The notes beneath the pieces are model-generated. The model ran no database searches and was not told the DNA's origin. It saw nothing but the letters and a program-made list of their open reading frames with translations. The position numbers were made by a program, and so were the translations under genes. From sequence record CP080654.1: a DNA stretch of 64,000 nucleotides. One strand, 5' to 3'. Below are positions 38,859 to 59,729 of this stretch, piece by piece. This stretch comes from a plasmid. Position 1 is the stretch's first letter; each line of letters begins with the position of its first letter.

Positions 38859-39257
38859 TTAATCATTAGTATTATTTACCTCATCCTCTTCAGGGAAATA
38901 CATACGCATAACTTCCTGCACGTCTTCCTGAATATTCTGAATGATCCCTTTCCATTGCCATCGAGGGTCATCCTTTACATGGGGACTGAGGCATTCAATA
39001 CCCAAAACTTTATTCATAGAAAACTGTGTTTTAACTACATATTCGAATAAAGCCTTATTGAATGCCATCTGATTGAAACCAGACTCCTTACGTTCCATTT
39101 GAGCTTCATACACACGAAGCCCAAGCTCAATGAGCATCGAACTGATACTTGAAAAATTCACATCCTTGTCCTTAGCACCGCCAGCACGACGCTGCTCAAT
39201 GATTGCATTGATTTTCTCAACAACCTGATCACTTATATAAACCTGCACTCTTGGCAT
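38859..39257 (-). CDS. traM: TraM oriT-binding relaxosome accessory protein.
   Basis: From the internal ATG: MPRVQVYISDQVVEKINAIIEQRRAGGAKDKDVNFSSISSMLIELGLRVYEAQMERKESGFNQ, a close match to F TraM. Confidence 0.9.
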   Translation of the reverse strand: MPRVQVYISDQVVEKINAIIEQRRAGGAKDKDVNFSSISSMLIELGLRVYEAQMERKESGFNQMAFNKALFEYVVKTQFSMNKVLGIECLSPHVKDDPRWQWKGIIQNIQEDVQEVMRMYFPEEDEVNNTND

Positions 39258-39329
39258 AGCAAATCCTTTCTTATTAAGAGTGAATACTAACAACACACAT
39301 ATAGAATTTTCGTCCAACAAACTCAAGAT

Positions 39330-39678: not shown

Positions 39679-40164
39679 ATGAAGGGAGTAGCGTTTGGTA
39701 TCATCCTGTCTTTAATACCATTGTCATCAATGGCAGCAGACTGCTTTGATATGGCTGGCAGGGATTACAAAATTGATCCGGATCTCCTGCGTGCTATATC
39801 ATGGCAAGAATCACGATTTAAAATTGATGCGATTGGGCGTAATCCTGTTACGGGTTATGGATCAGGCTTGATGCAAATTGACTCGCAGCATTTCAACGAA
39901 CTGTCGCGATATGGAATAAAACCGGATCATCTTCTTAGCGATGCTTGTCTTAACATCTACACCGGAGCCTATTATCTGGCTCAGGCGTTTAAAAAGTGGG
40001 GCGTTTCGTGGGATGCAGTCGGGGCATACAATGCAGGCTTCAAAAAGACCCCGCGCCAGGCAGCAAGACGTTACGAGTATGCGAAGAAGATCCATTACTA
40101 CTACACGGCTATCAAAGCAAGCAAACGAACTTCTTCTAAAGATCAGAAAATCGCCATGAACTAA
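39679..40164 (+). CDS. Gene X / orf169-type lytic transglycosylase (P19 family).
   Basis: 161 aa with a signal peptide. [14 protein letters not shown]...GLMQI is the lysozyme-like SLT catalytic motif (ES...GLMQ). It is the first gene of the leading region, as in F/R1. Confidence 0.85.
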
Positions 40165-40196: not shown

Positions 40197-40529
40197 TTAA
40201 AAATCTACGGCATCTATACCTGGATAATAATCGGCATCACTATCAAAATGAAAAAGCAGATACCCGCCCTCCCGGTGCATTAGTATGAGATTTTTGCGTA
40301 AAAATTTTGACACCCCACCTCTTTTTAGCGCCAGAAGATGGCGTTTGAAATCATACATCCTTATAACACAACCATAAGGTGTATCATGTATCCACTCTAA
40401 GTAACTATCGCAAGTTAGATAATTGGTTGTTGATGAAAGCACCTGAAGAACTCTGATATCACCTTCTTCCATATGTGAAATACTGATACAGACAGCTTTA
40501 AATTCAAACATAAGTATTCCCACCATCAA
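40197..40529 (-). CDS. Hypothetical protein (AT-rich, about 100 aa).
   Basis: ORF between gene X and the orf273-like gene. No motif. Confidence 0.35.
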   Translation of the reverse strand: MMVGILMFEFKAVCISISHMEEGDIRVLQVLSSTTNYLTCDSYLEWIHDTPYGCVIRMYDFKRHLLALKRGGVSKFLRKNLILMHREGGYLLFHFDSDADYYPGIDAVDF

Positions 40530-40558: not shown

Positions 40559-41380
40559 TTAGCCTTTAAGAGTGCGGAATTTCTCCGCAATTAACCACAA
40601 TGCCTTATTGAGTTTGACATCACCATCAATTGCTTTTACTGGCCGGGTTGTTGTTCTTTTCCCTTTTTCAGTTCGGCCAGGCAAACCGCCTTTAATCAGA
40701 TTTTCCTGGACCCTTTGATATGTAGTCCAGATGTCATATTTTTTATCTTCATAACGGCGCGGATGAATTATCTGTTCAATACTGACCGGAGATTTATTTT
40801 CATCTTCATATCGGTAGGTTAATGCAGCTTGTCCAAACAGACGCTGTTCTTCCTTGGTTAAGGCAATAGACTTCATGACATCAACGCCTTCAGTTATTTT
40901 ATCGAAAATTCCCAGAACTTCGTAAGCACCTTCGATAACCCTTCCCACAATATCACCTTTATGAGGTACACGAATCTCACCAAACGACGTACCGCACACA
41001 AGGCCATTTGTGCATACAAAACGGAACATACCCGGGATCATTTGATAACTGGACGATCCATCATGCGAGTTAAGAAGAATGATTTCGGGTACTTCTGTTC
41101 CTTTATTGGCCCCTTCACGGCGAAGTCTTACCATATGCTTAGTATGCCCCCGTTTATCCTCATCCCTTACTCGTGACTGACAGGCAAAAAATGGCTGGAA
41201 ACCTTCTTCACGTAATTTATCCAGCAGTGTAATGGTTGGAATATAGGTATAGCGATCACTACGTGAATTATGCTTTTCTTCTGAAAACACAGAAGGTACA
41301 ACCTTGACTAATTCATCGTTAGTCAGTGGGCGTTCCTGACGAATGGAATGAGTAAGTCCAAATCGGGATGCTAAACGCAT
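40559..41380 (-). CDS. Leading-region 273-aa protein (F orf273-like; DUF932-like by recollection).
   Basis: 273 aa from the internal ATG (MRLASRFGLTHSIRQERPLTNDELVKV...). The longer ORF upstream runs into the Frpo-like repeat and is an artefact. Confidence 0.7.
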   Translation of the reverse strand: MRLASRFGLTHSIRQERPLTNDELVKVVPSVFSEEKHNSRSDRYTYIPTITLLDKLREEGFQPFFACQSRVRDEDKRGHTKHMVRLRREGANKGTEVPEIILLNSHDGSSSYQMIPGMFRFVCTNGLVCGTSFGEIRVPHKGDIVGRVIEGAYEVLGIFDKITEGVDVMKSIALTKEEQRLFGQAALTYRYEDENKSPVSIEQIIHPRRYEDKKYDIWTTYQRVQENLIKGGLPGRTEKGKRTTTRPVKAIDGDVKLNKALWLIAEKFRTLKG

Positions 41381-41409
41381 TTTTTTCTCCTTAATTAGAT
41401 CTGAATTTT

Positions 41410-42160
41410 TTAAACCATCACCCGTTGAGTTGCCGGGGCCGCGGTTTTGACTTTGTGCGGGGACCTGCTGAACCTGCCCCCTGGATATAACCTTCACCCG
41501 TTTGAGAGCCGTTCGCCGCGAGGGCGTAAACGAGCACGGCCCGGTGCAGATGTCCGGGGGTGAGCGGGAAATTTTTTTCGGTCTAATGAAGCGGCAGCGG
41601 AATGGCCGGGAAAAATTTATTGCGAAAGGCTCTGCCGTCCCCTGGACAGCAAGACGGGTTGTGCTTGTCTCAGCCCCGGCGAATGGACTCAAACGGGTGA
41701 TACGGCGCCAGGGGAAAGGAGCAGGCACCCGCCGCAACGACGAAGAGCGCGGGCGCGAAACGGCGTTGCCCTGCAGAGTGCCGGCAGCTTTATCGCCGGC
41801 ACGGTGAAAGCGGCGCGACCGGAACGGTCGCAGCAAGCGCTGCTGTTGACCCTGACCTCAGACATCAGACACTAGCCGTCAGGCCCGAAACCGCGTAGCG
41901 GGTTCGGCGGAGCTTACCGCGTCTTTTCGCGGTTAGCGGAGTGTGGCTCGACGACCGGACAGCGCAGCTGGCCGGGAGCCGAAGGTGTCCAGTATGGGTG
42001 TGCTTTTAAAGCCTTTAAGGGTTAAAAAGAGACATCACAGCAGAAAGAAGAAGAGAAAGCAGGAAGACAGGGGGCAGCAAACAGGGAAAACGCGGAAAGG
42101 AAATACGGGCGGCGCGTGAGCGCGGCCCGGTTTTCCCGGCGACGCAGGCGCGCGGCCTTT
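41410..42160 (-). promoter_or_regulatory. Frpo/ssi-like repeat copy 1: a large imperfect inverted repeat able to form a ssDNA hairpin promoter, with a conserved upstream segment.
   Basis: A >90% identical sequence recurs at ~44118, ~50286 and ~53680, in the same orientation, each immediately 5' of a minus-strand gene block. Arm catcacccgtttgagagccgttcgccg pairs with cggcgaatggactcaaacgggtgata. Confidence 0.7.
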
Positions 42161-42200: not shown

Positions 42201-43034
42201 TTACGCGGCCTCCTGTATTCCGCGCAAAAAGTCCCGCATGGCCCTGAACCGGCGAAGATCTGCCAGTCGCTTTTCAAAGGCATTCAGGTAGTAAACCGGG
42301 GTATACCTCACCCGCCGGTACTGCATCGTGAGCGTGTTACCCGTCACCACTTCCGCCGCTATCCCCAGCAGTGACAGCTGGATGAAGGCCATATCTGCCG
42401 CTACCGGATCGATGTCAATGCAGCTGCCGAACATGTGCATTGAGGGGTTGATATCGGCTTCAAGCAGGCACTCTGCATAGGCGATCAGCATCCCGGCAGC
42501 CCCACACGCCGGATCGCTGACTGTGGCAATCCCTTCCCGGCGGATAGTGTCTCTGACACCTGGCATTAGCATCCGCGCCATCAGACACTGCACTGAATAC
42601 GGGGTAAAATACTGCCCGCGAAAATTATCGCCCAGCTCCAGCTCCATAAAAATAGCGCCGAGGAAATCATGAAATTTCGCCTCCAGCGCACACACCATCA
42701 GGCAGAACATTTCCTGCATGTTCGCGATGTCGGTGGCCCCGTACCGGGCGCAGATTTTCCGGCAGTTCTCCATGCTCTCCGGCGTTCGTATCCGGGCCAT
42801 ATCCAGCTCGCTGGCGGCAAGCGACAGAAAATCACTGAACACTTCCCAGCGCCCCAGATGGCGGCCCGTATCCTTAAATACGCGGATAAAACGGCTCCGG
42901 CTGTACTGCTCGCTCATCATACGCTGAACCGTGGGCACCATTTCCGCGATCTGCTGCCCTGCCTGAATGACAGGGCTGTTATCAGCGGCTTCTCTGGCCA
43001 TATTGAACACATCGGCAAAACTCAGTTGTGACAT
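42201..43034 (-). CDS. HsdM-like (gamma-class N6-adenine methyltransferase-like) protein that lacks the catalytic NPPF/Y motif.
   Basis: 277 aa. Motif X GQYFTPYSVQCLMARML and motif I SDPACGAAGMLIAY are present, with an HsdM-like segment GSCIDIDPVAADMAFIQLSLLGI. No (N/D)PP(F/Y) occurs before the C-terminus. Confidence 0.6.
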   Translation of the reverse strand: MSQLSFADVFNMAREAADNSPVIQAGQQIAEMVPTVQRMMSEQYSRSRFIRVFKDTGRHLGRWEVFSDFLSLAASELDMARIRTPESMENCRKICARYGATDIANMQEMFCLMVCALEAKFHDFLGAIFMELELGDNFRGQYFTPYSVQCLMARMLMPGVRDTIRREGIATVSDPACGAAGMLIAYAECLLEADINPSMHMFGSCIDIDPVAADMAFIQLSLLGIAAEVVTGNTLTMQYRRVRYTPVYYLNAFEKRLADLRRFRAMRDFLRGIQEAA

Positions 43035-43084
43035 GAAACATTCTCCGGTAATGCCGCCCCCTTCAGGGGGCGGCGTTTTTCACA

Positions 43085-43231
43085 TCACGCGAGGCCGAGG
43101 CCAGCGTAAACCGCGGTCATGAACTGCTGCCAGTACTCCAGCTTTAAAGCGGGAACGCGGGCTCGCTGACCACTGCGAAGGGCATTTACAAACGCGTTCG
43201 CCTGTGCGACGATTTGCGGGTCGAAATTCAT
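43085..43231 (-). CDS. Possible small protein (~48 aa), not in the ORF track.
   Basis: Minus-strand ATG preceded by GGAGAttaaacc. Hand translation gives MNFDPQIVAQANAFVNALRSGQRARVPALKLEYWQQFMTAVYAGLGLA*. It sits in the gap between the 277-aa and 115-aa genes. Confidence 0.3.
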   Translation of the reverse strand: MNFDPQIVAQANAFVNALRSGQRARVPALKLEYWQQFMTAVYAGLGLA

Positions 43232-43325: not shown

Positions 43326-43673
43326 TCATTTTTCGGTCAGGTTAAATCCCTCCTTAATGCGCGTTGTGATCTGCGCATGGCTCAGGTTACACACATCCCG
43401 CAGCCGGAAATATCTGGCTCCGTAGCGGGCATAGATCTCTGTCACGTCACCGCAAACCATCTCCTGCAGCATGAACGTTTCCCACTCGCCGTTCTCACTC
43501 GTTGACCAGTTGAGCGGATACATCAGGCCCAGCGCGTCATGGAATGTGTGAACGTCGATTTCTGAGGGGGCTTTTACCGCTGCTTTCTGCAGGCTCAACC
43601 AGTATTCGCGCTCTGCTTCTGCTGTAGCCAGCATTCCCGGATGGGCTGAGGATTCGGTGAGGAGTAAGTGCAT
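43326..43673 (-). CDS. Hypothetical leading-region protein (~115 aa).
   Basis: MHLLLTESSAHPGMLATAEAEREYWLSLQ... It is co-oriented with and downstream of Frpo-like copy 2. Confidence 0.45.
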   Translation of the reverse strand: MHLLLTESSAHPGMLATAEAEREYWLSLQKAAVKAPSEIDVHTFHDALGLMYPLNWSTSENGEWETFMLQEMVCGDVTEIYARYGARYFRLRDVCNLSHAQITTRIKEGFNLTEK

Positions 43674-43729: not shown

Positions 43730-44083
43730 TCAGTAATCAGCTGCCAGCTCGCTCATAAGGTCGGCACATTCATCATGAGCACGTTCTTCTTCCGCCAGCG
43801 TCAGCATGTAACCCCGTTGAGCCGCCGCGCCAATGAATACCGGACGATCTTTCAGCGGCAGCTTTTCCAGGTAAATCATAGCCATACTCAACAGACGGGA
43901 CGCATAAATCTCGTAGTACAAACCACACCCACGACTTGCCTGTTTTTCCATACGAGCCAGCACCACATCAGCGCGGATCACATCGAAAGGGTTACGGGAA
44001 TGAATGTTGCGCACAAAACAGTCAGTCCGGAGGGTTGTGCTTTCTTTGGTGGAGGGTTTTACGTTGACGTTTTGTATGCTCAT
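43730..44083 (-). CDS. Hypothetical leading-region protein (~117 aa), the first gene after Frpo-like copy 2.
   Basis: MSIQNVNVKPSTKESTTLRTDCFVRNIHSRNPFDVIRADVVLARMEKQ... An ATG lies ~35 nt from the repeat end. Confidence 0.45.
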   Translation of the reverse strand: MSIQNVNVKPSTKESTTLRTDCFVRNIHSRNPFDVIRADVVLARMEKQASRGCGLYYEIYASRLLSMAMIYLEKLPLKDRPVFIGAAAQRGYMLTLAEEERAHDECADLMSELAADY

Positions 44084-44117
44084 CCTACTTTCTCCTCTGT
44101 CTGTTTTTCTGTCTTTT

Positions 44118-44700
44118 AAAACCATCACCCGTTGAGTTGCCGGGGCCGCGGTTTTGACTTTGTGCGGGGACCTGCTGAACCTGCCCCCTGGATATAACCT
44201 TCACCCGTTTGAGAGCCGTTCGCCGCAAGGGCGTAAACGAGCACGGCCCGGTGCAGATGTCCGGGGGTGAGCGGGAAATTTTTTTCGGCCTAATGAAGCG
44301 GCAGCGGAATGGCCGGGGAAAATTTATTGCGAAAGGCCCTGCCGTCCCCTGGACAGCAAGACGGGTTGTGCTTGTCTCAGCCCCGGCGAATGGACTCAAA
44401 CGGGTGATACGGGTACCAGGGGAAAGGAGCAGGCACCCGCCGCAACGACGGAACGCGCGGGCGCGAAACGGCGTTGCCCCGCAGAGTGCCGGCAGCTTTA
44501 TCGCCGGCACGGTGAAAGCGGCGCGACCGGGACGGTCGCAGCAAGCGCTGCCGTTGACCTTTCAGACATCAGACACTAGCCGTCAGGCCCGAAACCGCTT
44601 TGCGGGTTCGGCGGAGCTTACCGCGTCTTTTCGCGGTTAGCGGAGTGTGGCTCGACGACTGGCCAGCTTTGCTGGTCAGGAGCCGAAGGGGTCCAGTGTT
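44118..44700 (-). promoter_or_regulatory. Frpo/ssi-like repeat copy 2 (shorter: its distal segment is truncated).
   Basis: Same sequence as copy 1 from aaaccatcacccgttgagttgccggggccgcgg through ...gcggttagcggagtgtggctcgacga. Confidence 0.7.
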
Positions 44701-44712
44701 GTTATGCCTTTC

Positions 44713-45063
44713 TTAACGTTCCAGGCGTTCGACGGTGGCCAGCAATTGCGGATAGGTCGCTGAGTAACACTTTTCGTACAGTGATTTAGCTGCGGGTATC
44801 CCTTCCAGATAATCATCCGAGTCCCGAATTTCCTGAGCCAGATATTCAATAAAGGCGGGTTCCACAACGGAGCCACTCAGCACATTAAGCAGAACCTGTG
44901 TTTCGTCGTCATCGAGAGGAAGGGCACAGGCCCGAACCAGATGCGCATAGCGATCAAAGATATTATTCAGCCTTTCAGTCACCCCTTCCCTGTGGGAGTT
45001 CAGATGTGCTCGCAGCTTAGGCGAAGGCGTGAAAGAGGGGTTGCGGGAGATCTCTTTTTTCAC
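44713..45063 (-). CDS. Hypothetical protein (116 aa).
   Basis: It overlaps the upstream 97-aa gene by 4 nt (ATGA), so the two form an operon pair. Confidence 0.45.
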   Translation of the reverse strand: MKKEISRNPSFTPSPKLRAHLNSHREGVTERLNNIFDRYAHLVRACALPLDDDETQVLLNVLSGSVVEPAFIEYLAQEIRDSDDYLEGIPAAKSLYEKCYSATYPQLLATVERLER

Positions 45064-45353
45064 TGGTTATCCTCAGAATACTGGCCCGACATCATTAAGA
45101 ATTTGCGCCGCTCCCTCACGAACTGTCGATACCATTTACGGGCAACACTGGCCAGATCGTCCTCAGAAGCGTCACAGTACAGCGTACTGCCCATAAACCC
45201 TCCCCCACGGCAAATCTGAGCACCTGTGTTACCAGAGTGTCCCGGGGACTCCAGGTGGACATAACCGCCACTCTCGGGTGCGTAAAAACTGAAAATTTCG
45301 CCGGTTTTACGGGATTTTATCGTGAAGTTCATGCTGGCTCTCCTTTGGCTCAC
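45060..45353 (-). CDS. Hypothetical protein (97 aa).
   Basis: Translationally coupled to the 116-aa gene. Confidence 0.45.
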   Translation of the reverse strand: MSQRRASMNFTIKSRKTGEIFSFYAPESGGYVHLESPGHSGNTGAQICRGGGFMGSTLYCDASEDDLASVARKWYRQFVRERRKFLMMSGQYSEDNQ

Positions 45354-45379: not shown

Positions 45380-45739
45380 TTAAGTGGAAAAATTGCTGTT
45401 CATTACACAATCAACTGTATGACAGATGTCATACATAATCAACAAAAAAAAGCCGGCTAACAATTGCGTTGATTCAGTCACTCCGGCAACATCAATAATT
45501 AACATCCACATAGCTATGGCAAATAACTGGCATGCAATTATCCTTGCGTTCATCATAGAACCACCTAATAAAGACACTGTTGCGGCCATAGTTATAATCC
45601 ACATTCCAGCAAAAGCAGCAAAAATAGCTGAAATGCTGAACCCCAAAAATGTAAACACTATCGATTCACGCACGGTAAGCCCGTAAAATCCATAAAGCAC
45701 TAAAATCACACAAATAAATACCACCATAAACTTCATCAT
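45380..45739 (-). CDS. Hypothetical polytopic membrane protein (119 aa, AT-rich).
   Basis: 3-4 TM segments. Confidence 0.4.
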   Translation of the reverse strand: MMKFMVVFICVILVLYGFYGLTVRESIVFTFLGFSISAIFAAFAGMWIITMAATVSLLGGSMMNARIIACQLFAIAMWMLIIDVAGVTESTQLLAGFFLLIMYDICHTVDCVMNSNFST

Positions 45740-45849: not shown

Positions 45850-46176
45850 TTAACGGACTGTTTTACCGCTAAAATAATCAGGCCGAGCCTCCAGTTCTCT
45901 TTCGATGAGTTCATCAGCAAACAGTGGGGCGGTACGATATACTCTTTTCGCCAGATTGCGTCGGCGAGCTGCAGCTTTTTGTTCTTCACTCCAGCGACGG
46001 ATCGGCTTGTCCCCACAAAAATCCAGGCACACAGCATACCCTGCCCCTGCCACCCACAAATCCATAACTGATGCTGGCGCTGGTTGTCCTTCCTCAACTT
46101 GTTCCGAAGCGAGCACCTCCACTCCTGGACACGGAGAAGGTAACTTCCAGCGCAGCGAATAGCGCCATGTCATCAA
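45850..46176 (-). CDS. Hypothetical protein (108 aa) immediately downstream of psiA.
   Basis: ORF abutting the psiA stop (46177). Confidence 0.4.
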   Translation of the reverse strand: MMTWRYSLRWKLPSPCPGVEVLASEQVEEGQPAPASVMDLWVAGAGYAVCLDFCGDKPIRRWSEEQKAAARRRNLAKRVYRTAPLFADELIERELEARPDYFSGKTVR

Positions 46177-47372: not shown

Positions 47373-49382
47373 TCAGGCGGCGCAAGCCGTGTTGTCTTCG
47401 TTATCAGCATCGGTATCGGGCGTCGTTGTCGAACCCGATTTTTTCGTATCCCGTGGCTGCATCCAGCCTGGTACCCAGCGGGTGTCTGACAGAGAACGCT
47501 CTGCAAGGATCGCCGCATCTCCCTTTTTCAGCTTCGCCGCTTCGACGGCGACTGAATCCAGCCCAGCTTCCTGTAACGCCTCCACTATCTGGTTTTTACT
47601 GAGCAGGCCGAGGAAGTTTTCAGCAGTGGGCTGCCACCAGTCACGCAAATTGAATCCGATCGCCGTCTCCACCTCATCAAGGTTGCTACGGCTGGTATGC
47701 CCATGCTCACGGGTCTGAACCCCATCAACGGAACAGGCCGTGCAGAACGCCATCAGAGCCATCAAGGTCTGACCGTCCAGTGTGAAAAATGTGGAAAAGT
47801 CCTTCTTCCAGCCTTGCGGTAACAGGCCTTCAAGACGGTTTTTCTCCTGCATAAGAGTTTGCCACGCCAGACCGTCTTTTCCGGTCGGGGCTTCGCTGAC
47901 CAACCCACTGTGATGAACATCCATCCGCATTACAAAGGGGTGACGGGTGGTAAGGCAGTATTCAAATACGCAGGAGCACAGCCGCCAGACCATCAGGGCC
48001 ACTGCTTTCTGTGGCTGTTGTACCAGGGCAGCCTGAACAGCCAGTGTGCGTTCGGAAGACATTTTTTTGAGTAAGGGCAGACTGATCCCTTCTGCGGCAT
48101 CCGGCTCTTTACGGTCGATCACATGCAGATCACGGCTGGTCGCCTGCGTAGCGGCATCCGCCTCCCCGGGCGTTTTAACCTTCTTCTGAATCCCGCGCAA
48201 AATGCAAAGCTCACCATTATGAAGACAGGCTACTACGCCACAGCTTGCCTTCTGTTCGTCAGTCCATTGACGGTGTGCCGCCTGACTTTCTATTTCGTCG
48301 ATCAGAACCTGAATAGCGGCTTCATCCTCGTAGGTTTCCGTTGCCGCCTGTGTAGCGTACAACTCGTCGAGTCGTTGCTGTTCGTCCGGTGTGTACTGCG
48401 GTTCTGGCACAGGAAGCAGAAGGTAATTTTCACGATCTTCACCATAGTTCTGCAGTGGGTTTTCCCGCCCTATTGACCATGACCAGTCTTCGTTCAGTTC
48501 AATTGCCAGTGCAGCAGTCTCCAGTTTTTCCATAACCAGACGGTCTACGAGCACGCGATCTGCAGTACCGTCATTCTCCTCCTGGCTAAATAAATCTTCA
48601 CGAACCACACCACCTGCTGCTTCGTAGGTTTCTCGACCAATGAAGACAAAGCGAGGATGTGTAACGGAAATTTCCGTTTCTGTAATTACCCGCTTGATGA
48701 GATGTGCCGAAACCGTGCTGTAAGCAGCTTTCACCTGTTCATATACCTGCACCTGACGCGCCTGATCACTTTCCAGACTCAGTGCCTGGCACTGCTCCAC
48801 ATCAAGGGTATTGTTTGCCAGCAGTTCGAGGATTTCCGGGGCGAGATGAGCCAATTTCAGCATGCGCTGAACGTGGCGACTTCCATACCCCAACTGGTCA
48901 CCAATCTGCGCCGGGCTTTTCCCTTGTTCGGAGAGTTTGCGGAATCCGGCAATTTGTTCTGCCGGATGCATGGCCACACGCTGGTTGTTTTCCACCATTG
49001 AGGCCACAACCGCGAGTTCGTCACTAACCCGCTTAACGATCACCTGATACCCGGCATCGATGCGGTTTTCAGTGAGTAATAACTGCAGGGCTGCAAGACG
49101 CCGACCACCTGCAGCCACCCCTGACATACCTTCCGGGAGAGTATGCACAACCAGATTCTGAATCAGACCAATGGTCTCAATGGATTCAGCCAGTTCCCGG
49201 ACACTCTCAACCGGGTACGGGATAGTGCGAACGTTCAGTGGCGATTTAATCAGCGCAGACAGCGGCACCAGTTCAATCTGTGCTGCTTCAAGCGCCTCTT
49301 TCAGAGCCGCTGCTTCGGCAGGTTTGACGTTTTTTTTGCTGGTTTTGACAGATGTTTTTGCTTTAGACTCGGTCACGGACAT
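47373..49382 (-). CDS. ParB-like nuclease-domain protein (669 aa) of the leading region.
   Basis: N-terminal ParB/Srx fold signature LVPLSALIKSPLNVRT...ETIGLIQNLVVHTL...GGRRLAALQLL. Its size and position between ssb and psiB are as in F-like plasmids. Confidence 0.75.
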   Translation of the reverse strand: MSVTESKAKTSVKTSKKNVKPAEAAALKEALEAAQIELVPLSALIKSPLNVRTIPYPVESVRELAESIETIGLIQNLVVHTLPEGMSGVAAGGRRLAALQLLLTENRIDAGYQVIVKRVSDELAVVASMVENNQRVAMHPAEQIAGFRKLSEQGKSPAQIGDQLGYGSRHVQRMLKLAHLAPEILELLANNTLDVEQCQALSLESDQARQVQVYEQVKAAYSTVSAHLIKRVITETEISVTHPRFVFIGRETYEAAGGVVREDLFSQEENDGTADRVLVDRLVMEKLETAALAIELNEDWSWSIGRENPLQNYGEDRENYLLLPVPEPQYTPDEQQRLDELYATQAATETYEDEAAIQVLIDEIESQAAHRQWTDEQKASCGVVACLHNGELCILRGIQKKVKTPGEADAATQATSRDLHVIDRKEPDAAEGISLPLLKKMSSERTLAVQAALVQQPQKAVALMVWRLCSCVFEYCLTTRHPFVMRMDVHHSGLVSEAPTGKDGLAWQTLMQEKNRLEGLLPQGWKKDFSTFFTLDGQTLMALMAFCTACSVDGVQTREHGHTSRSNLDEVETAIGFNLRDWWQPTAENFLGLLSKNQIVEALQEAGLDSVAVEAAKLKKGDAAILAERSLSDTRWVPGWMQPRDTKKSGSTTTPDTDADNEDNTACAA

Positions 49383-50253: not shown

Positions 50254-50285
50254 AATGAATCTCCTTAATCTGTTGTTTTGCCTTT

Positions 50286-51055
50286 TAAAACCATCACCCG
50301 TTGAGTTGCCGGGGCCGCGGTTTTGACTTTGTGCGGGGACCTGCTGAACCTGCCCCCTGGATATAACCTTCACCCGTTTGAGAGCCGTTCGCCGCAAGGG
50401 CGTAAACGAGCACGGCCCGGTGCAGATGTCCGGGGGTGAGCGGGAAATTTTTTTCGGCCTAATGAAGCGGCAGCGGAATGGCCGGGAAAAATTTATTGCG
50501 AAAGGCCCTGCCGTCCCCTGGACAGCAAGACGGGTTGTGCTTGTCTCAGCCCCGGCGAATGGACTCAAACGGGTGATACGGGTACCAGGGGAAAGGAGCA
50601 GGCACCCGCCGCAACGACGAAGAGCGCGGGCGCGAAACGGCGTTGCCCCGCAGAGTGCCGGCAGTCCTTCGCCGGCACGGTGAAAGCGGCGCGACCGGGA
50701 CGGTCGCAGCAAGCGCTGCCGTTGACCTTGACGTCAGACATCAGACACTAGCCGTCAGGCCCGAAACCGCTTTGCGGGTTCGGCGGAGCTTACCGCGTCT
50801 TTTCGCGGTTAGCGGAGTGTGGCTCGACGACCGGACAGCGCAGCTGGCCGGGAGCCGAAGGTGTCCAGTATGGGTGTGCTTTTAAAGCCTTTAAGGGTTA
50901 AAAAGAGACATCACAGCAGAAAGAAGAAGAGAAAGCAGACAGACAGCAGGCAGCAAACAGGGAAGACGCGGAAAGGAAATGCGGGCGGCGCGTCAGCGCG
51001 GCCCGGTTTTCCCGGCGCCGCAGGCGCGCGGTCTTTCGAGGCGCGGCCAGACGGG
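50286..51055 (-). promoter_or_regulatory. Frpo/ssi-like repeat copy 3 (full length), immediately upstream of ssb.
   Basis: Near-identical to copies 1 and 4 across ~750 bp. Confidence 0.75.
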
Positions 51056-51084: not shown

Positions 51085-51648
51085 TCAGACGGTTATTCTG
51101 AGAATGGCGGTCGCTACCTGGGTATACGTGAATGTTCCCCGCGGCAACGGCTCCCAGACGTCCGCCAGGGACTCCAGCGCCTTTTGCTGACGCGGGCCGT
51201 CCAGACATATTCCAGTCAGAATCCCGCCAGGCTCAAGCAGAGTTAATGCCCGCCGGATATGCCGGATATCATCACCGCGATGAAACGGCGGATTCATGAT
51301 AATTCGTGTATACCGGCGCTCCGGATGATATTCGAGAAAATCTCCGCACCAGATCCGGACCTCCGGGAAATGCGCCTGCAGGTGACGGGCTAACCCGGCG
51401 TGCAGCTCCACGGCGTCACACTTCGCCCGGGGGACTGCATCCCTGATCGCCTGCAGTATGGCGCCCGTTCCGGCACTGGGTTCCAGAATGCGATCGGTTT
51501 CCCGGACATCAGCCAGCTCAACCAGCCGGCGACATTCCGGGGAGGGGGTGACAAAAAGTTGCGAGCTACCCTGAATTTCAGCGACAGGGGCGCGCCCTTC
51601 CAGTTTGTCCCGCATCGCCTGAATACGGTGTTTAAGGTCATGATGCAT
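51085..51648 (-). CDS. SAM-dependent methyltransferase with NPPF motif (putative N6-adenine DNA methyltransferase).
   Basis: Motif I ILEPSAGTGAIL and motif IV IIMNPPF. About 187 aa from MHHDLKHRIQ. Confidence 0.7.
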   Translation of the reverse strand: MHHDLKHRIQAMRDKLEGRAPVAEIQGSSQLFVTPSPECRRLVELADVRETDRILEPSAGTGAILQAIRDAVPRAKCDAVELHAGLARHLQAHFPEVRIWCGDFLEYHPERRYTRIIMNPPFHRGDDIRHIRRALTLLEPGGILTGICLDGPRQQKALESLADVWEPLPRGTFTYTQVATAILRITV

Positions 51649-51695
51649 GAATGTACTCCCTGACCTCCCCGGCAAGATGCCGGGGAGCCTTCCTG

Positions 51696-53051
51696 TTATT
51701 TTTTCGGAATTTCAACGGTTTTCATGTCTGTGATATACACATTCACGAGCGTACAACCGTGCGTCATGCACCGGCGGAAGCGATAGGCGCCGTGTGTTTC
51801 GGTTTCTGCAGCACCCCGCACGCCTTTATAATCAGCGGGTAATTTCGCCCACTCGGCTTTTGTCATTTCCCGGAACCCTTCCCCCGGATAATTGACGATC
51901 GGTGGGCGCTTCGCCGCTTTCTTCGCGTCGCTGGCTTCCTCCGCTGTCGGGGCTTTGTAGTCCGTGATACGGTCGGGCGTGAGTTTCATCGTGCCGCTGT
52001 AGCCCAGAAAGCGATAACCGGGCGTTTCGACTGAACTCACCTCCCCCTTACTCCGGTTAACCCGGAGAATGGTTAACCATTCTCCCCGACTCAGTACCTG
52101 CCCGCCTGGTTCAAATTCCTGTGTTCGGGTGACAACGCCACCGTTTTCATTGAGCATCGCGCGTTCGTAGGCCAGGCGGTTCTGGTAATGATTCACCCAG
52201 CGCTGTTGGTGGTTAATCGTGCGCTCATGACAGCGGATCGCAATATCACGCGCCTGTTCAAAAGTAATGATCTCCTCAGACAGGGCAGAATGGAGAGACA
52301 TCGAGCCCTCATACTGGCTTTTCTCTGCCGGGCGGGGGTATTTGTCGAGCGTGAAGCAGGCATGAATATGATCATAATTACTGACCAGTAACGCCATTTT
52401 CAGATCGAGCGTCTGCGCACGCCACATCGTCATATACTTTTCAGACCGGGCAATGTGCTTTTGGGACTTGCGTAATTCCGCCTCGATTTTTTTGATACGG
52501 CGGTAACGCACATCCGGACGCTCCTTGTATTTCGCGTGCCGCAGAGAGGCCTGCGCGCGCTGTTCCCAGTATTCGGCGCGCTCGAACAGCATCACCGCAC
52601 GTTTCATGCCGTTCTCAATTTTCTGCGCATGCCGGCGCGCGCGGCGCTCGCTGTGGTGGCCTACCAGGATCGGCTGTCCCAGCGGGACAGCCGATGCCAG
52701 CGAATCAACATGCGCAAGCGCCTGCTCCGATTCAACCGCCCGCCGGTCACTGTAGTCACTGAACCGCCCGGCGCGCTGCTCCTGGCGATCAAACAGGGTG
52801 CTGTCCTCGTCCTCGATATCACCGGCGAGGGAAAGCAGGACATCCTCCCGCCCCGGCGTCCAGGCTGGCGCCACAAAAAGTTCCTGTTTGGGCGCCCAGC
52901 GAAAGCCTGCTTTGTTGATCAGGGAATACGTTTCTTCATCGAGCCGTAATGATGCGTAAAGTCGCAATTTATTATCATCGGGTGAATAGGTTGCCCGGTA
53001 AGTCTGGCCTGCGGTGTTTTCCGTCATGATCTGTGCGGTAGTCGGTGCCAT
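51696..53051 (-). CDS. Hypothetical leading-region protein (451 aa), possibly DUF3560-like.
   Basis: Long ORF with coding-like composition. I have no motif-level identification, and the family recall is uncertain. Confidence 0.5.
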   Translation of the reverse strand: MAPTTAQIMTENTAGQTYRATYSPDDNKLRLYASLRLDEETYSLINKAGFRWAPKQELFVAPAWTPGREDVLLSLAGDIEDEDSTLFDRQEQRAGRFSDYSDRRAVESEQALAHVDSLASAVPLGQPILVGHHSERRARRHAQKIENGMKRAVMLFERAEYWEQRAQASLRHAKYKERPDVRYRRIKKIEAELRKSQKHIARSEKYMTMWRAQTLDLKMALLVSNYDHIHACFTLDKYPRPAEKSQYEGSMSLHSALSEEIITFEQARDIAIRCHERTINHQQRWVNHYQNRLAYERAMLNENGGVVTRTQEFEPGGQVLSRGEWLTILRVNRSKGEVSSVETPGYRFLGYSGTMKLTPDRITDYKAPTAEEASDAKKAAKRPPIVNYPGEGFREMTKAEWAKLPADYKGVRGAAETETHGAYRFRRCMTHGCTLVNVYITDMKTVEIPKK

Positions 53052-53652: not shown

Positions 53653-53679
53653 TTTTCTTTTTCCTGATTTTTAAAGAAC

Positions 53680-54335
53680 ATCACCCGTTGAGTTGCCGGG
53701 GCCGCGGTTTTGACTTTGTGCGGGGACCTGCTGAACCTGCCCCCTGGATATAACCTTCACCCGTTTGAGAGCCGTTCGCCGCAAGGGCGTAAACGAGCAC
53801 GGCCCGGTGCAGATGTCCGGGGGTGAGCGGGAAATTTTTTTCGGCCTAATGAAGCGGCAGCGGAATGGCCGGGAAAAATTTATTGCGAAAGGCCCTGCCG
53901 TCCCCTGGACAGCAAGACGGGTTGTGCTTGTCTCAGCCCCGGCGAATGGACTCAAACGGGTGATACGGGTACCAGGGGAAAGGAGCAGGCACCCGCCGCA
54001 ACGACGGAACGCGCGGGCGCGAAACGGCGTTGCCCCGCAGAGTGCCGGCAGTCCTTCGCCGGCACGGTGAAAGCGGCGCGACCGGGACGGTCGCAGCAAG
54101 CGCTGCCGTTGACCCTGACGTCAGACATCAGACACTAGCCGCCAGGCCCGAAACCGCGTAGCGGGTTCGGCGGAGCTTACCGCGTCTTTTCGCGGTTAGC
54201 GGAGTGTGGCTCGACGACCGGACAGCGCAGCTGGCCGGGAGCCGAAGGTGTCCAGTATGGGTGTGCTTTTAAAGCCTTTAAGGGTTAAAAAGAGACATCA
54301 CAGCAGGAAGAAGAAGAGAAAGCAGACAGACAGCA
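53680..54335 (-). promoter_or_regulatory. Frpo/ssi-like repeat copy 4.
   Basis: catcacccgttgagttgccggggccgcggttttgactttgtgcgg... is identical to the other copies. It diverges after ...gacagacagcagg. Confidence 0.7.
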
Positions 54336-54435
54336 GGGAGCAAGCCGGAAACGTAAAGATGCAGGCTGGAGAGAATATGTTTTTCATGCCGCCGGAAAGA
54401 AGCCATGATAAACCGGCGGCATACCAGACGGGGCG

Positions 54436-55463: not shown

Positions 55464-55970
55464 TCAGTTGCTGAATACATAGCCTTCATGGAAGACATAG
55501 CCGCTGCTGAACAGATCCCGCGCATAAGCCTCATAATCGAAATAGACGCGCAGGGATTCAGGCACCTCGTTTAACAGGCCGTGATCCTCCACAAAGCCAT
55601 AAGCAAAATCCGCCTCGCTTTCAGCCTCGCCACAATACGCCTCATCAAAGGCGTCATAGTCGCACTCGCCGGTATAGTCCGCCCAGGCCACAAACGCGGC
55701 AGCGCGTCCTTCGTCCTGCGCCTGCCGGAATGCCTCGATAAACGCCCACTTAACAGAGGATTCAGAGGCAAACTGAGACGGGATCCCTTCCCAGTCCTGA
55801 AACATAAACTCGGGGTCATCCTCGGCGGCATGCAACGCCCGGCAGGCGTCATAAAATTCGTCTTCGTCGTCGAAGTCGGTTAAATCAAACCATTTGCCAA
55901 AAATACTGCCGCCGTTGTACTGGTGATATGTGCCCACGTAGACGGCCGGAACGGTTACTGATGAAGTCAT
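55464..55970 (-). CDS. ardA: ArdA antirestriction protein (DNA-mimic inhibitor of type I R-M).
   Basis: 168 aa and strongly acidic. PAVYVGTYHQYNGGSIFGKWFDLTDFDDEDEFYDACRALHAAEDDPEFMFQDWEGIP matches the ArdA N-terminal consensus. Confidence 0.9.
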   Translation of the reverse strand: MTSSVTVPAVYVGTYHQYNGGSIFGKWFDLTDFDDEDEFYDACRALHAAEDDPEFMFQDWEGIPSQFASESSVKWAFIEAFRQAQDEGRAAAFVAWADYTGECDYDAFDEAYCGEAESEADFAYGFVEDHGLLNEVPESLRVYFDYEAYARDLFSSGYVFHEGYVFSN

Positions 55971-56012: not shown

Positions 56013-56443
56013 TCAGTCCAGCGCGGCGTAAATAGCACTGCATTCGGGGTGAAAGGTGATGTGATTCCAGAGCTGGGCATCACGCAGCATATAAAGGCGA
56101 GTCAGCGCCGGGTTACTGCTGTCATGATGGGCCGCCAGACGGCGATTAATCGCCAGGCTGGTCAGAATAATGCCCGCCGCGTCGGCGCTGACAGTGCGAT
56201 CAAACCAGTTTTCGCTACTGACCAGATGTACCCGGCCACAATCCGGCATCATGTAGCCGCCCCCCTCCGGCAGGCGAATAAAATGCCAGAAGCCGCCCTC
56301 ATAGCCGGGCATCCATTTTTTGGCCAGAGCGTACACCTGTAATTCCGCGAGCATGAAATCCGTGCCGAACAGGTACGGCATAAAAGACAGGCGGTCGGAC
56401 TCCTCAACATTCAGGACCGGGCATGTATTCACATACTGCATGG
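56013..56443 (-). CDS. KlcA/ArdB-family antirestriction-like protein (~143 aa).
   Basis: From the internal ATG: MQYVNTCPVLNVEESDRLSFMPYLFGTDFMLAELQVYALAKKWMPGYEGGFWHFI... The family assignment is from memory of Pfam 'Antirestriction'/KlcA-like leading-region proteins. Confidence 0.55.
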
Positions 56444-56459
56444 ATAAACCTCCGTAATC

Positions 56460-57060
56460 ACATAGACTGCGGCACCGGGTTGTGCCGTGCCGACACGACA
56501 GCCCGGCGAAAAGCGGAAGATGCAGGGGCGACACCGGAGGCCGCAGCGCAGATATAGCGCGAAGCTGGTCTGGACGGTTTTCGAGCGAAACCTGAGCGAG
56601 AAAACGACGGGAAGAACGGCGAGCATCATAAAAAACCTGCGACCGGGCGAGGATGGCGGCGTCAGCGCACCCTTGCATCTGCAGCGGCCGGGCTAAAGTG
56701 AAGGCACGGCACAACCCGTCGCGATGCAGGAGGTTGAATACAGGGTTTCTCTCCCCCGTTTTTCGACCACCGGGAGAAAAGCGGAAGCAGATGTCGCAAC
56801 GCGACAGACGCAGGAATAAGGCCACAGACCGGAGGGATGGGGCCGGGTGAAGCGGAGCCGGCGGCAACGGCAAGCCGGCGACTGCCTTATCCGGGGATGG
56901 CGGCGCCAGCGAACTCCAGCCTCTGCGGCTGCCGGGCTAAAGTGAAGGCACGGCAAAGCCAGCACACGGCACGGCGATAACAGAGGGTTGTGTTCACCCA
57001 AAAGGCCCGGAAACCGGGCCGGGTGGACGCGGAGCCGGCACGGCGACATCCTTATCGCAC
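56460..57060. repeat. GC-rich non-coding region with ~2.5 imperfect direct repeats (unit ~175-240 bp).
   Basis: ctgcagcggccgggctaaagtgaaggcacggcacaacc (56680) recurs as ctgcggctgccgggctaaagtgaaggcacggcaaagcc (56921). ggccgggtgaagcggagccggcggcaacgg recurs as ggccgggtggacgcggagccggcacggcg. gaaaagcggaag occurs twice. Confidence 0.6.
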
Positions 57061-58370: not shown

Positions 58371-58592
58371 TCAATCCAGAAAGCTTTCATCGAGCATCAG
58401 TGCAATATTGAACGCCTCATCCATCAGGACGCTGAGACGTCGCAGACTGATACCGGCAAGCCGTTCCGCCAGTCCGTCGTACCGGTAGTGGTACGTGTCT
58501 TCCAGCACTTTCAGGGTGGTTTTCAGGTCGCAAAGATTGTTCGCCAGCCCGGCCATATCGCGGCGCAGGGCTTCGTGTCCGTCGTAATTCAT
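58371..58592 (-). CDS. Hypothetical small protein (~74 aa).
   Basis: Starts MNYDGHEALRRDMAGLANN. It lies directly downstream of the methyltransferase gene. Confidence 0.35.
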   Translation of the reverse strand: MNYDGHEALRRDMAGLANNLCDLKTTLKVLEDTYHYRYDGLAERLAGISLRRLSVLMDEAFNIALMLDESFLD

Positions 58593-59293
58593 TACGCGGC
58601 CTCCGGGAGCCATTCATCGTTCGCCGCCGGGGTATTTACGGCCCGGTGCATGGCGGCCAGTCGTTCGGTTCCGGCCCGGTGGTACTGCGCCAGCATTTCG
58701 ATGCCGATATAGCGGCGTCCGGCACGGTATGCAGCGACGCAGGTCGAACCGCTTCCGGCAAACGGGTCGAGAACAATCGCGCCCGGGGCGCTGAATGACT
58801 CAATCAGCGGCTGTAGCGCCTCCACCGGTTTCTGCGTCGGATGCAGGGTATTACCGGTATACGGGAAGGGCAGCACATCCGGCAGCGGTTTAAGGGGCGG
58901 CACGGGGCGGCCTTTGGCAAGGACATAAGCCCCTTCATGGCAGTAGTCCACAAATCCGCGTCGGGCCCTGGCGTTACGACGGTTGGAGGCATAGTTTTTG
59001 GTGAACACAAGCTGGCCCACGGCATAGAATCCTGCCGCCTTCCACGCGGCCATAAAGCGGTCCACACGGTTCCAGCTGTAGAAGCTCACCATCAGTGCGT
59101 CTTTTTTAAGGACGCGGTACATCTCCAGCGTGGCCGGTTGCAGCCATTCGTCCGTCACATCCCCGGCAATCTGTCTGCCCTGACGGTCCTTAAAACCGAC
59201 GAGGTAAGGCGGATCGGTCACAATAAGGTCCACGGCACGGTCGGGGAATCCGCGCATCACATCAATACAGTTCCCGAGAATGAATCTGGACAT
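58592..59293 (-). CDS. Beta-class N6-adenine/N4-cytosine DNA methyltransferase (orphan; YhdJ/Dam-like).
   Basis: Motif IV (VTDPPYL) precedes motif I (VLDPFAGSGSTCVAAYRAGRRYIGIE), the circular permutation typical of beta-class MTases. About 233 aa from MSRFILGNCIDVM. Confidence 0.8.
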   Translation of the reverse strand: MSRFILGNCIDVMRGFPDRAVDLIVTDPPYLVGFKDRQGRQIAGDVTDEWLQPATLEMYRVLKKDALMVSFYSWNRVDRFMAAWKAAGFYAVGQLVFTKNYASNRRNARARRGFVDYCHEGAYVLAKGRPVPPLKPLPDVLPFPYTGNTLHPTQKPVEALQPLIESFSAPGAIVLDPFAGSGSTCVAAYRAGRRYIGIEMLAQYHRAGTERLAAMHRAVNTPAANDEWLPEAA

Positions 59294-59729
59294 GGCAGCA
59301 CTCCTGTAGTCTGAGGGGGCAGGAGGCATCACCGCGATACCGTTCCCTGCCGCACGCTGCCTGTTCATCGCGTCCGGTCACGGGTCAGGCCGACCGTGGA
59401 ATACCGCAGCCGTCCGTCTTTTGGACGGCAAGGATATGCCGCGAAAGCGGCTTGAAGGGCGTTCCTTAAAAGGGCGAGGGACTGGCGCACACTCTCAACG
59501 ACGCCGGGCCGGAGCGGAAAAACCGCCCGTCCCGTACCAGACCGGACGCGAGACACTGGCAGCGGGCGGCAGGCTTGCGTTAACTCCAGGCGAACGGGGA
59601 ATTACCGGCATACCTGTCCACAAATCCGGGGCTTAAGATTGTGGATAACCTGAAGGCAAACGACGGAGAAGCGCGGGAGAACAGACGCCACCACGCCTGT
59701 TCTTTTTTTGAACAACCGGAAAGTTTATA

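Follow-up and report, generated by a model that had tools for sequence, protein, structure and literature searches.

A gene annotated as an N-6 DNA methylase in the leading region of a Klebsiella pneumoniae conjugative plasmid very probably encodes not a methylase but a conserved, non-catalytic half-methyltransferase of mobile-element early regions. The coding sequence occupies 42201..43034 on the minus strand of a 64,000-nucleotide stretch of sequence record CP080654.1 (the whole of which we call the window), and its 277-aa product is identical to WP_004152751.1, which carries the name 'N-6 DNA methylase'. The protein would descend from an HsdM-type, gamma-class N6-adenine methyltransferase, of which the N-terminal half now stands on its own. 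It appears to have kept the helical lid and strands beta1-beta4, which would form the S-adenosylmethionine (SAM, or AdoMet) pocket with motifs X, I, II and III. The NPPF tetrapeptide seems to have been exchanged for T-P-x-Y/H, and beta5-7, the half that binds target base and DNA, and the HsdS-binding tail to have been lost.

We propose that this protein is produced early in the recipient cell, by transcription from a single-strand promoter resembling Frpo, and that it may be an effector of establishment or anti-defence that does not methylate but needs its cofactor pocket for activity. Its targets would be SAM-dependent, HsdM-type defence modules, such as type I restriction-modification (R-M) systems and their relatives. 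The anti-defence role is suggested by association and the target by ancestry, and we consider an early effector directed against such modules a real possibility, somewhat short of an even chance.

Anatomy and predicted fold

The half-methyltransferase was compared with EcoKI HsdM by hand alignment and with its own family in an alignment of 133 representatives plus the window protein (134 sequences), which are only 30-40% identical to the window protein. An AlphaFold2 model based on a 113-sequence alignment has a mean predicted local distance difference test score (pLDDT) of 89 and a predicted template-modelling score (pTM) of 0.83. The first 41 residues (42912..43034, minus strand, as are all features of the protein below) form a variable segment that is conserved within the enterobacterial subfamily only and is modelled as disordered (pLDDT 49-63). 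[quoted passage not shown] Motif X, G140-Q-Y-F-T-P145 (42600..42617), opens GQYFTPYSVQCLMARML (aa 140-156), with G in 123, Q in 132, F in 132, T in 128 and P in 129 of the 133 representatives. Motif I, D174-P-A-C-G-A-A-G-M182 (42489..42515), lies within SDPACGAAGMLIAY (aa 173-186) after beta1 (aa 170-174) and aligns with 'DPAAGTAGF' of EcoKI, where motif I contacts AdoMet (PMC2647291). The sequence that follows, CIDIDP...IQLSLLGI...VVTGNTL, holds motifs II and III. The acidic residue of motif II is found in D207-I-D209 (42408..42416) at the end of beta2 (aa 201-207), D207 being present in 132 of the 134 sequences, and motif III, G232-N-T-L235 (42330..42341), ends beta3 (aa 226-233), with G in 127/133, N or D in 131/133 and L in 124/134. 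In the hand alignment 'FIGLELVPGTRRLALMNCLLHDI' of EcoKI pairs with 'FGSCIDIDPVAADMAFIQLSLLGI' and 'IRLGNTL' with 'VVTGNTL', GNTL being the same letter for letter. Motif X, motif I and the HsdM-like II/III segment had been recognized in the original prediction, and the strings could be located as described.

The near-invariant positions of the family are D123-x-L-G, G140-Q-F/Y-F-T-P, E/D174-P-x-C-G-x-G-G-M, D207, M215, Q219, G232-N/D-T/S-L, T245-P and W/F253, all of which are common to HsdM save T245-P and W253. In gamma-class enzymes, motifs X, I, II and III together form the SAM pocket. Judging from the alignment, these pocket motifs are the most strongly conserved part of the half-methyltransferase, and we infer from them that it binds SAM.

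The original prediction also held that the chain terminates before any (N/D)PP(F/Y) motif. No such motif is present, but the chain extends as far as the position of motif IV, where T245-P-V-Y248 (42291..42302) stands right after beta4 (aa 238-244). This degenerate tetrapeptide appears to replace N-P-P-F because 'HIVATNPPF' of EcoKI pairs with 'RRVRYTPVYY' in the hand alignment, and because the model places beta4 immediately before it. At this site the family has T in 131 and P in 115 of the 134 sequences, and Y (51), H (50) or F (12) at the fourth position. Only 32 residues follow T245 (family median 55), compared with 263 in EcoKI HsdM. They include a basic helix (aa 253-276; 42207..42278; isoelectric point (pI) of the segment 11.3), in which W/F253 and R/K256-L257 are conserved and the remainder is variable, and which closes the protein where beta5-7 of a methyltransferase would come. 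Everything beyond motif IV is missing, including motifs V-VIII and beta5-7: there are four strands, one helix and a stop. The predicted structure is half of a Rossmann-like methyltransferase fold plus a helical lid. No solved structure of the family was found in the PDB by sequence profile or by fold, and the nearest structures by fold are type I M subunits.

This anatomy, as read from the sequence, rules out an ordinary DNA methylase because the catalytic tetrapeptide, the second aromatic residue, half the sheet and the target-recognition element are all gone. Since the catalytic parts are lost and the cofactor pocket is the most constrained part, the protein is most readily understood as a pseudo-methyltransferase that would retain its pocket.

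Integrity of the gene

The open reading frame (ORF) comprises 277 codons from an ATG start, with GGAG 10 nt upstream. Family models recognize only part of it: Pfam N6_Mtase matches over profile positions 25-118 of 311 (aa 139-238, E 5.5e-10), matches to PADLOC type I methylase models are confined to the same stretch, and the TIGR00497 hsdM score of 15.4 bits is below the cut-off of 242.75. Taken alone, the partial Pfam match speaks for a full-length methylase truncated into a pseudogene or broken by a frameshift artefact, an explanation that the following observations make virtually impossible. A downstream frame with NPPF in continuity, a concern raised in the original prediction, was looked for and none was found; the pattern [NDS]PP[FYWH] occurs neither in the protein nor in three frames across ~900 nt downstream, and the sole NPPF and DPPY within the window, at 51294 and 59215, lie in other genes. 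When the window was searched by tblastn with the EcoKI subunits, the sole match joined HsdM aa 147-220 to 42617-42339; HsdS, HsdR and the C-terminal 260 residues of HsdM gave no match in the window, and no C-terminal remnant is seen in any frame.

Moreover, there are hundreds of identical copies: the gene is present in 153 PLSDB plasmids at an identity of at least 99%, and in 518 at a coverage of at least 80%. Length stays at 276-277 aa in relatives down to 67% identity, and the family occurs across phyla. The gene is under purifying selection, with a ratio of nonsynonymous to synonymous substitution rates (dN/dS) of 0.06-0.18 against homologues of 91, 79 and 70% amino acid identity, and its stop codon is conserved. 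Taken one by one in this order, the homologues give dN/dS values of 0.06, 0.12 and 0.12. Because no NPPF lies downstream and because copies are many and nearly identical, length and stop codon are constant and dN/dS is low, a frameshift artefact or pseudogene is ruled out. Hence the earlier description of an HsdM-like protein without its catalytic tetrapeptide holds, and so does the suggestion of a conserved pseudo-enzyme, as opposed to an artefact of sequencing.

Size and distribution of the family

Searching 1.84 billion representatives with a profile returned 4187 proteins at E<=1e-3, and 609 clusters (50% identity) at E<=1e-30. Nearly all of the best 150 matches are 230-300 aa long and align to query positions ~45-260. 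Canonical motif IV is absent from 149 of these 150, the one exception carrying it in a second, fused methylase domain. A locus search with a 9-sequence alignment found members in Melainabacteria, Firmicutes, Campylobacterota, Alpha-, Beta- and Gammaproteobacteria, Actinomycetota and Lentisphaerota. The family is present in 2167 of 72,556 PLSDB plasmids, 1475 of these 2167 being conjugative, and a few phages also encode members. The source databases call them 'N-6 DNA methylase', 'type I R-M methyltransferase subunit' or 'hypothetical', and nothing else. PHROG 5696 corresponds to the solo form and PHROG 23459 (649 positions) to a fused layout; neither is annotated with a function.

Leading-region setting

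The window belongs to an IncFII(K)/IncFIB conjugative plasmid of the pKPN4 type (99.9-100% identity). Its tra operon runs on the minus strand and reaches traM (38859-39326), and the origin of transfer (oriT) lies between traM and an SLT transglycosylase gene (39679-40164, plus strand). The leading-region genes are all on the minus strand and are transcribed towards oriT. The half-methyltransferase gene, oriented like ssb and psiB, is ~3 kb from oriT on the leading side and stands behind a Frpo-like element, in agreement with the earlier assignment to an early-transferred block.

It is the fourth and last ORF of a unit headed by this Frpo-like single-strand promoter element (copy 2; 44114..44487, minus strand), which is 98% identical to candidate Frpo no. 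1 (Serratia CP047692.1; PMC11541004, supplementary file 4) and 68% identical to F ssiD. The three preceding ORFs, on the same strand, encode proteins of 117 aa (43730..44083), 115 aa (43326..43673) and 48 aa (43085..43231) that belong to no Pfam family. Class 1 Frpo promoters in F and pESBL direct early transcription in the recipient (PMC12672017), and because the element is homologous to Frpo and ssiD, we infer that the half-methyltransferase is expressed early there as well.

Another Frpo-like element (copy 1; 41404..41779, minus strand) is located downstream of the half-methyltransferase gene and heads DUF932 (40559-41380, ATG start at 41380) and DUF5983 (40197-40529), both on the minus strand, the latter being the first gene to enter. 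Both elements are part of a repeat of ~600-700 nt found in four copies (~41404-42092, 44114-44711, 50260-50968 and 53667-54355), each of which heads a block of leading-region genes. The copies are mutually 89-100% identical over most segments, with one 144-nt segment at 65-66% in two copies, and their cores are 97-98% identical to the Serratia marcescens CP047692.1 candidate Frpo and 68% identical to F ssiD. The repeat reaches ~300 nt past the Frpo core on the promoter-distal side. Long ORFs run through the repeats on both strands (40559-41836 and 44085-44510, minus; 41502-41807 and 44209-44640, plus). Almost certainly, none of them is a gene, and gene callers could be misled by them; for example, 40559-41836 is a 425-aa, TTG-started extension of DUF932, the true start of which is the ATG at 41380.

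The order of entry is DUF5983, DUF932, the half-methyltransferase, the three small ORFs of its unit, further small ORFs, psiA and psiB, followed by a 669-aa ParB-like protein (47373-49382), ssb, a 196-aa methyltransferase and a DUF3560 protein, and beyond these by ArdA, a PF03230 antirestriction protein and an N6_N4 methyltransferase. The small ORFs without a Pfam family number seven, all on the minus strand: besides 43730-44083, 43326-43673 and 43085-43231, which share the orientation of the half-methyltransferase and are apparently co-transcribed with it, there are 44713-45063, 45060-45353, 45380-45739 and 45850-46176. Judging from its sequence, the product of 45380-45739 resembles a multi-pass membrane protein. 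A G+C-rich hairpin separates the 48-aa ORF from the half-methyltransferase start, GCCGCCCCC-TTCA-GGGGGCGGC (43046-43077), with a T-run on the plus strand and no gene ending there; it may be an attenuator, an RNA-stability element or a bidirectional terminator.

The 196-aa methyltransferase (51085-51675, minus strand) is a minimal MTS-type protein with FxTP, EPSAGxG and NPPF and with no recognizable target-recognition domain. It directly follows the 451-aa DUF3560 protein (51696-53051, minus strand), and both stand behind the fourth Frpo-like copy. Because the leading region also holds ArdA (55464-55970), a 286-aa protein with a C-terminal PF03230 domain (56013-56873) and a complete N6_N4 methyltransferase with DPPY (58592-59368), all on the minus strand, the plasmid carries at least three recognized counter-restriction functions apart from the half-methyltransferase.

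Fusions and neighbourhoods in other elements

In three representative clusters (P0135, P0141 and P0151; 651-656 aa) the half-methyltransferase domain forms the C-terminus of a larger protein, after an ArdC-N single-stranded DNA-binding domain, an MPTase-PolyVal zincin and a CbtA-like segment. The layout of phrog_23459 is the same. Such architecture is that of the polyvalent early-conflict proteins of conjugative elements (PMC5512222). P0135 and P0151 (locus L084, 566-2521) also match the CbtA toxin family (PF06755, E ~1e-7), which is unusual in an anti-restriction protein. In a different fusion, P0255 (645 aa; locus L083, 8001-9938), the half-methyltransferase domain is combined with an MTS-type methylase at the C-terminus, which shares 36% identity (E 3e-21) with the 196-aa methylase of the window. 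This fusion is a singleton, encoded on a single phage-like contig, and the half-methyltransferase domain is absent from its relatives (367-416 aa).

We surveyed the neighbourhoods of family members at 73 diverse chromosomal or plasmid loci. The commonest neighbour is a small tyrosine recombinase (20/73), followed by a ParB-like protein of ~650 aa homologous to that at 47373-49382 in the window (10/73). DUF932, a VirD4-like coupling protein and ParA recur at six loci each and SSB at four, and ArdC or PF03230 homologues are occasional neighbours. ORFs of the NPPF type were found at eight of the 73 loci, none of them adjacent or recurrent, and the idea of a split enzyme whose C-terminal half is encoded next door was therefore rejected. 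On a Salmonella IncF plasmid the family gene is the first after SLT and oriT, and on Acinetobacter pMC23.1 it precedes parAB. On Pseudomonas aeruginosa pIHMA87, a distance of 1.2 kb separates the family member from a Lar-family restriction-alleviation gene. The member in this plasmid is clustered (locus L086, 4404-9372) with Lar, C5 cytosine methyltransferase, Gp37/Gp68-family, PAPS-reductase-like and DUF262 genes, and the cluster looks like a counter-restriction island.

Possible functions

The original prediction proposed an antirestriction mechanism, working either as a decoy for the assembly of HsdS and HsdR or as a SAM sink. The general idea is favored by association, that is, by the leading-region position behind a Frpo-like element, by the fusions to ArdC-N and zincin, and by Lar, ArdC, ParB-like, DUF932 and SSB neighbours in distant elements; neither of the two mechanisms finds support. 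An anti-defence role is the most economical guess because of ancestry, leading-region position and ArdC fusions taken together. In a more specific form, which we consider unlikely, a cofactor-loaded 'poison half-subunit' would dock on HsdM-type modules of the host (type I R-M, possibly BREX PglX or type IIG enzymes) through its retained N-domain helices or the exposed edge of beta4 and lock them inactive, or else the protein would be a sponge or enzyme for a SAM-derived molecule. Several points weigh against an anti-defence effector. The role is deduced from the company that the gene keeps and cofactor binding from motifs. ArdA and a PF03230 antirestriction protein are already present in the region, so that there is no a priori need for one more function against type I systems. 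The interfaces through which HsdM and HsdS bind are absent, leaving no evident route to a type I complex. Finally, many chromosomal copies reside in integrative elements where the recombinase is the sole neighbour of note, which gives little functional information.

The interpretation closest to the database names is that the protein is still an active methyltransferase that uses T-P-x-Y as a variant motif, perhaps as a homodimer that rebuilds a larger sheet, and that acts on incoming single-stranded DNA or on a target other than DNA; the present annotation would then be roughly right. In its favor, conservation of the pocket motifs is complete and the fourth residue of motif IV has remained aromatic, and N4-cytosine enzymes have serine instead of Asn/Asp at the first position of this motif. 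Moreover, leading regions are rich in orphan methylases (PMC11541004). We nevertheless give this interpretation a small chance, as beta5-7 and a target-recognition element are lacking, a median of only 55 residues follows the threonine, the second proline of motif IV is lost, and PDB searches revealed no known active enzyme of such shape. A degenerate motif IV is also typical of non-catalytic paralogues such as METTL14. Such paralogues provide the model for another possibility, that of a non-catalytic partner which targets or activates the plasmid's own minimal orphan methyltransferase (51085-51675), as METTL14 supports METTL3 and DNMT3L supports DNMT3A. The P0255 fusion, in which the domain is joined to a relative of precisely this methylase, and the location of both genes behind Frpo-like elements in the window agree with it. 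However, that fusion is a singleton whose relatives do without the domain, a methylase homologue of any kind lies within 7 kb at only one of the 73 diverse loci, and a neighbour with motif I and motif IV was found at none of them, making a dedicated partner quite improbable.

Alternatively, the protein might lower or divert SAM, as a sink or as a new SAM-cleaving enzyme, and so disarm SAM-dependent defences (type I and type III R-M systems and BREX) in the manner of the T3 SAM lyase. The cofactor pocket is the only part of the methylase that has been kept and conserved, and the invariant polar residues Q141, D207, Q219 and T245 could be catalytic. Yet stoichiometric binding cannot deplete a cofactor present at ~0.1 mM or more, and two SAM-requiring methylases with intact catalytic motifs are encoded in the same early region. 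Both of these arguments are indirect, but they disfavor the sink that the original prediction had in mind, and no similarity to known SAM lyases or hydrolases was detected in Pfam, NCBIfam or PHROGs; we regard SAM diversion in any form as very doubtful. Least probable among these possibilities is an HsdM decoy that would tie up HsdS or HsdR, so that the restriction complex could not assemble. The half-methyltransferase is closest to HsdM in both sequence and fold, and it has a structural counterpart of part of the helical N-terminal domain of HsdM, the domain that forms the bridge between the two M subunits of M.EcoKI (PMC2647291). However, HsdS is held by EcoKI HsdM aa 470-529 and by loops 430-433 and 464-470, and removal of ~43 C-terminal residues abolishes HsdS binding (PMC2647291). 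The decoy is weakened because the C-terminal region and catalytic-domain loops that hold HsdS have no counterpart in the half-methyltransferase, and most of the HsdM N-terminal domain has none either. In addition, conservation is concentrated in the cofactor pocket and not on a putative interface, and type I systems differ greatly among the phyla in which the family occurs. A variant of this mechanism may be that the N-domain helices cap the M-M bridge, or the HsdM N-domain, of a host enzyme.

Significance

We found no description of the half-methyltransferase family in the literature searched, a coverage outside of which most subscription journals fall. The family is widespread, occurring on epidemic Klebsiella IncFII(K) plasmids and on plasmids of Enterobacter, Acinetobacter and Pseudomonas, and in our plasmid it lies in the region on which establishment in a new host depends. 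The labels that it uniformly carries, N-6 DNA methylase or type I M subunit, are misleading. If the proteins do not methylate, the share of 'methylases' in leading regions is overestimated and a widespread early function has been overlooked. If they are poison half-subunits or act on a SAM derivative, a broad counter-defence function would be hidden under the label 'DNA methylase' in ~3% of sequenced plasmids. Being small, well predicted and easily tested, the protein is a practical candidate for an establishment or anti-defence function on antibiotic-resistance plasmids.

Comparison with known systems

The closest comparison is with HsdM (EcoKI M; PF02384, TIGR00497), which has NPPF where the half-methyltransferase has TPVY. 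The strands beta5-7, a second aromatic residue of the F345 type, the C-terminal HsdS-binding helix and most of HsdM_N are absent from the half-methyltransferase, F345 of EcoKI being the second of the aromatic residues that sandwich the flipped base (PMC2647291). The counterpart of EcoKI aa 270-529 is lacking as a whole, and the window contains neither hsdS nor hsdR. Among the features of gamma-class N6-adenine methyltransferases, motifs X (FxTP before motif I), I, II and III are present, whereas the catalytic motif IV, the seven-stranded fold and a TIGR00497 score above the cut-off are not. Since three of the defining features proved to be lacking when tested, the protein is, by sequence, a derivative of the HsdM/N6_Mtase family and not a member of it in the functional sense.

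Degenerate methyltransferases are known elsewhere. METTL14 (EPPL at motif IV) and DNMT3L likewise combine a methyltransferase fold with a degenerate motif IV and purifying selection; however, both retain an entire fold and function as obligate partners of an active paralogue, whereas the half-methyltransferase has half a fold and usually no methylase neighbour. Ral/Lar and the T3 SAM lyase are functional analogies, being mobile-element factors that modulate type I systems or the cofactor, and no relation in sequence or fold to either was detected. The protein is also not a member of the known anti-restriction families ArdA/Ocr, ArdB/KlcA or ArdC, its matches in Pfam, NCBIfam and PADLOC being of the N6_Mtase type only. 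The DNA mimics ArdA and Ocr have a strongly acidic surface that it does not share, and a DNA mimic was rejected as unlikely on the basis of a pI of 5.5 (family median 5.4), compared with 4.05 for the ArdA of the window.

In terms of genomic niche, the half-methyltransferase resembles the orphan methyltransferases of leading regions (M.EcoGIX; the MTase class in PMC11541004), with which it shares the early-promoter context. Those enzymes have complete catalytic domains, as do the proteins at 51085-51675 (NPPF) and 58592-59368 (DPPY) in the window, and the half-methyltransferase does not. Judging from family labels, the family appears to have been counted among the orphan methylases in the leading-region survey (PMC11541004). 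The polyvalent proteins described by Iyer et al. (2017, PMC5512222) provide another parallel. The methylase module reported there is a complete N6A methylase with an SF2 helicase (DarB type), unlike the half-methyltransferase, and we saw no truncated form mentioned in the text. The ArdC-type polyvalent proteins have domains fused after ArdC-N and the MPTase zincin, as the half-methyltransferase domain is in its own fusions. Moreover, the effector domains of polyvalent proteins also occur as solo versions beside type IV secretion system and other early genes (PMC5512222), just as solo half-methyltransferases do.

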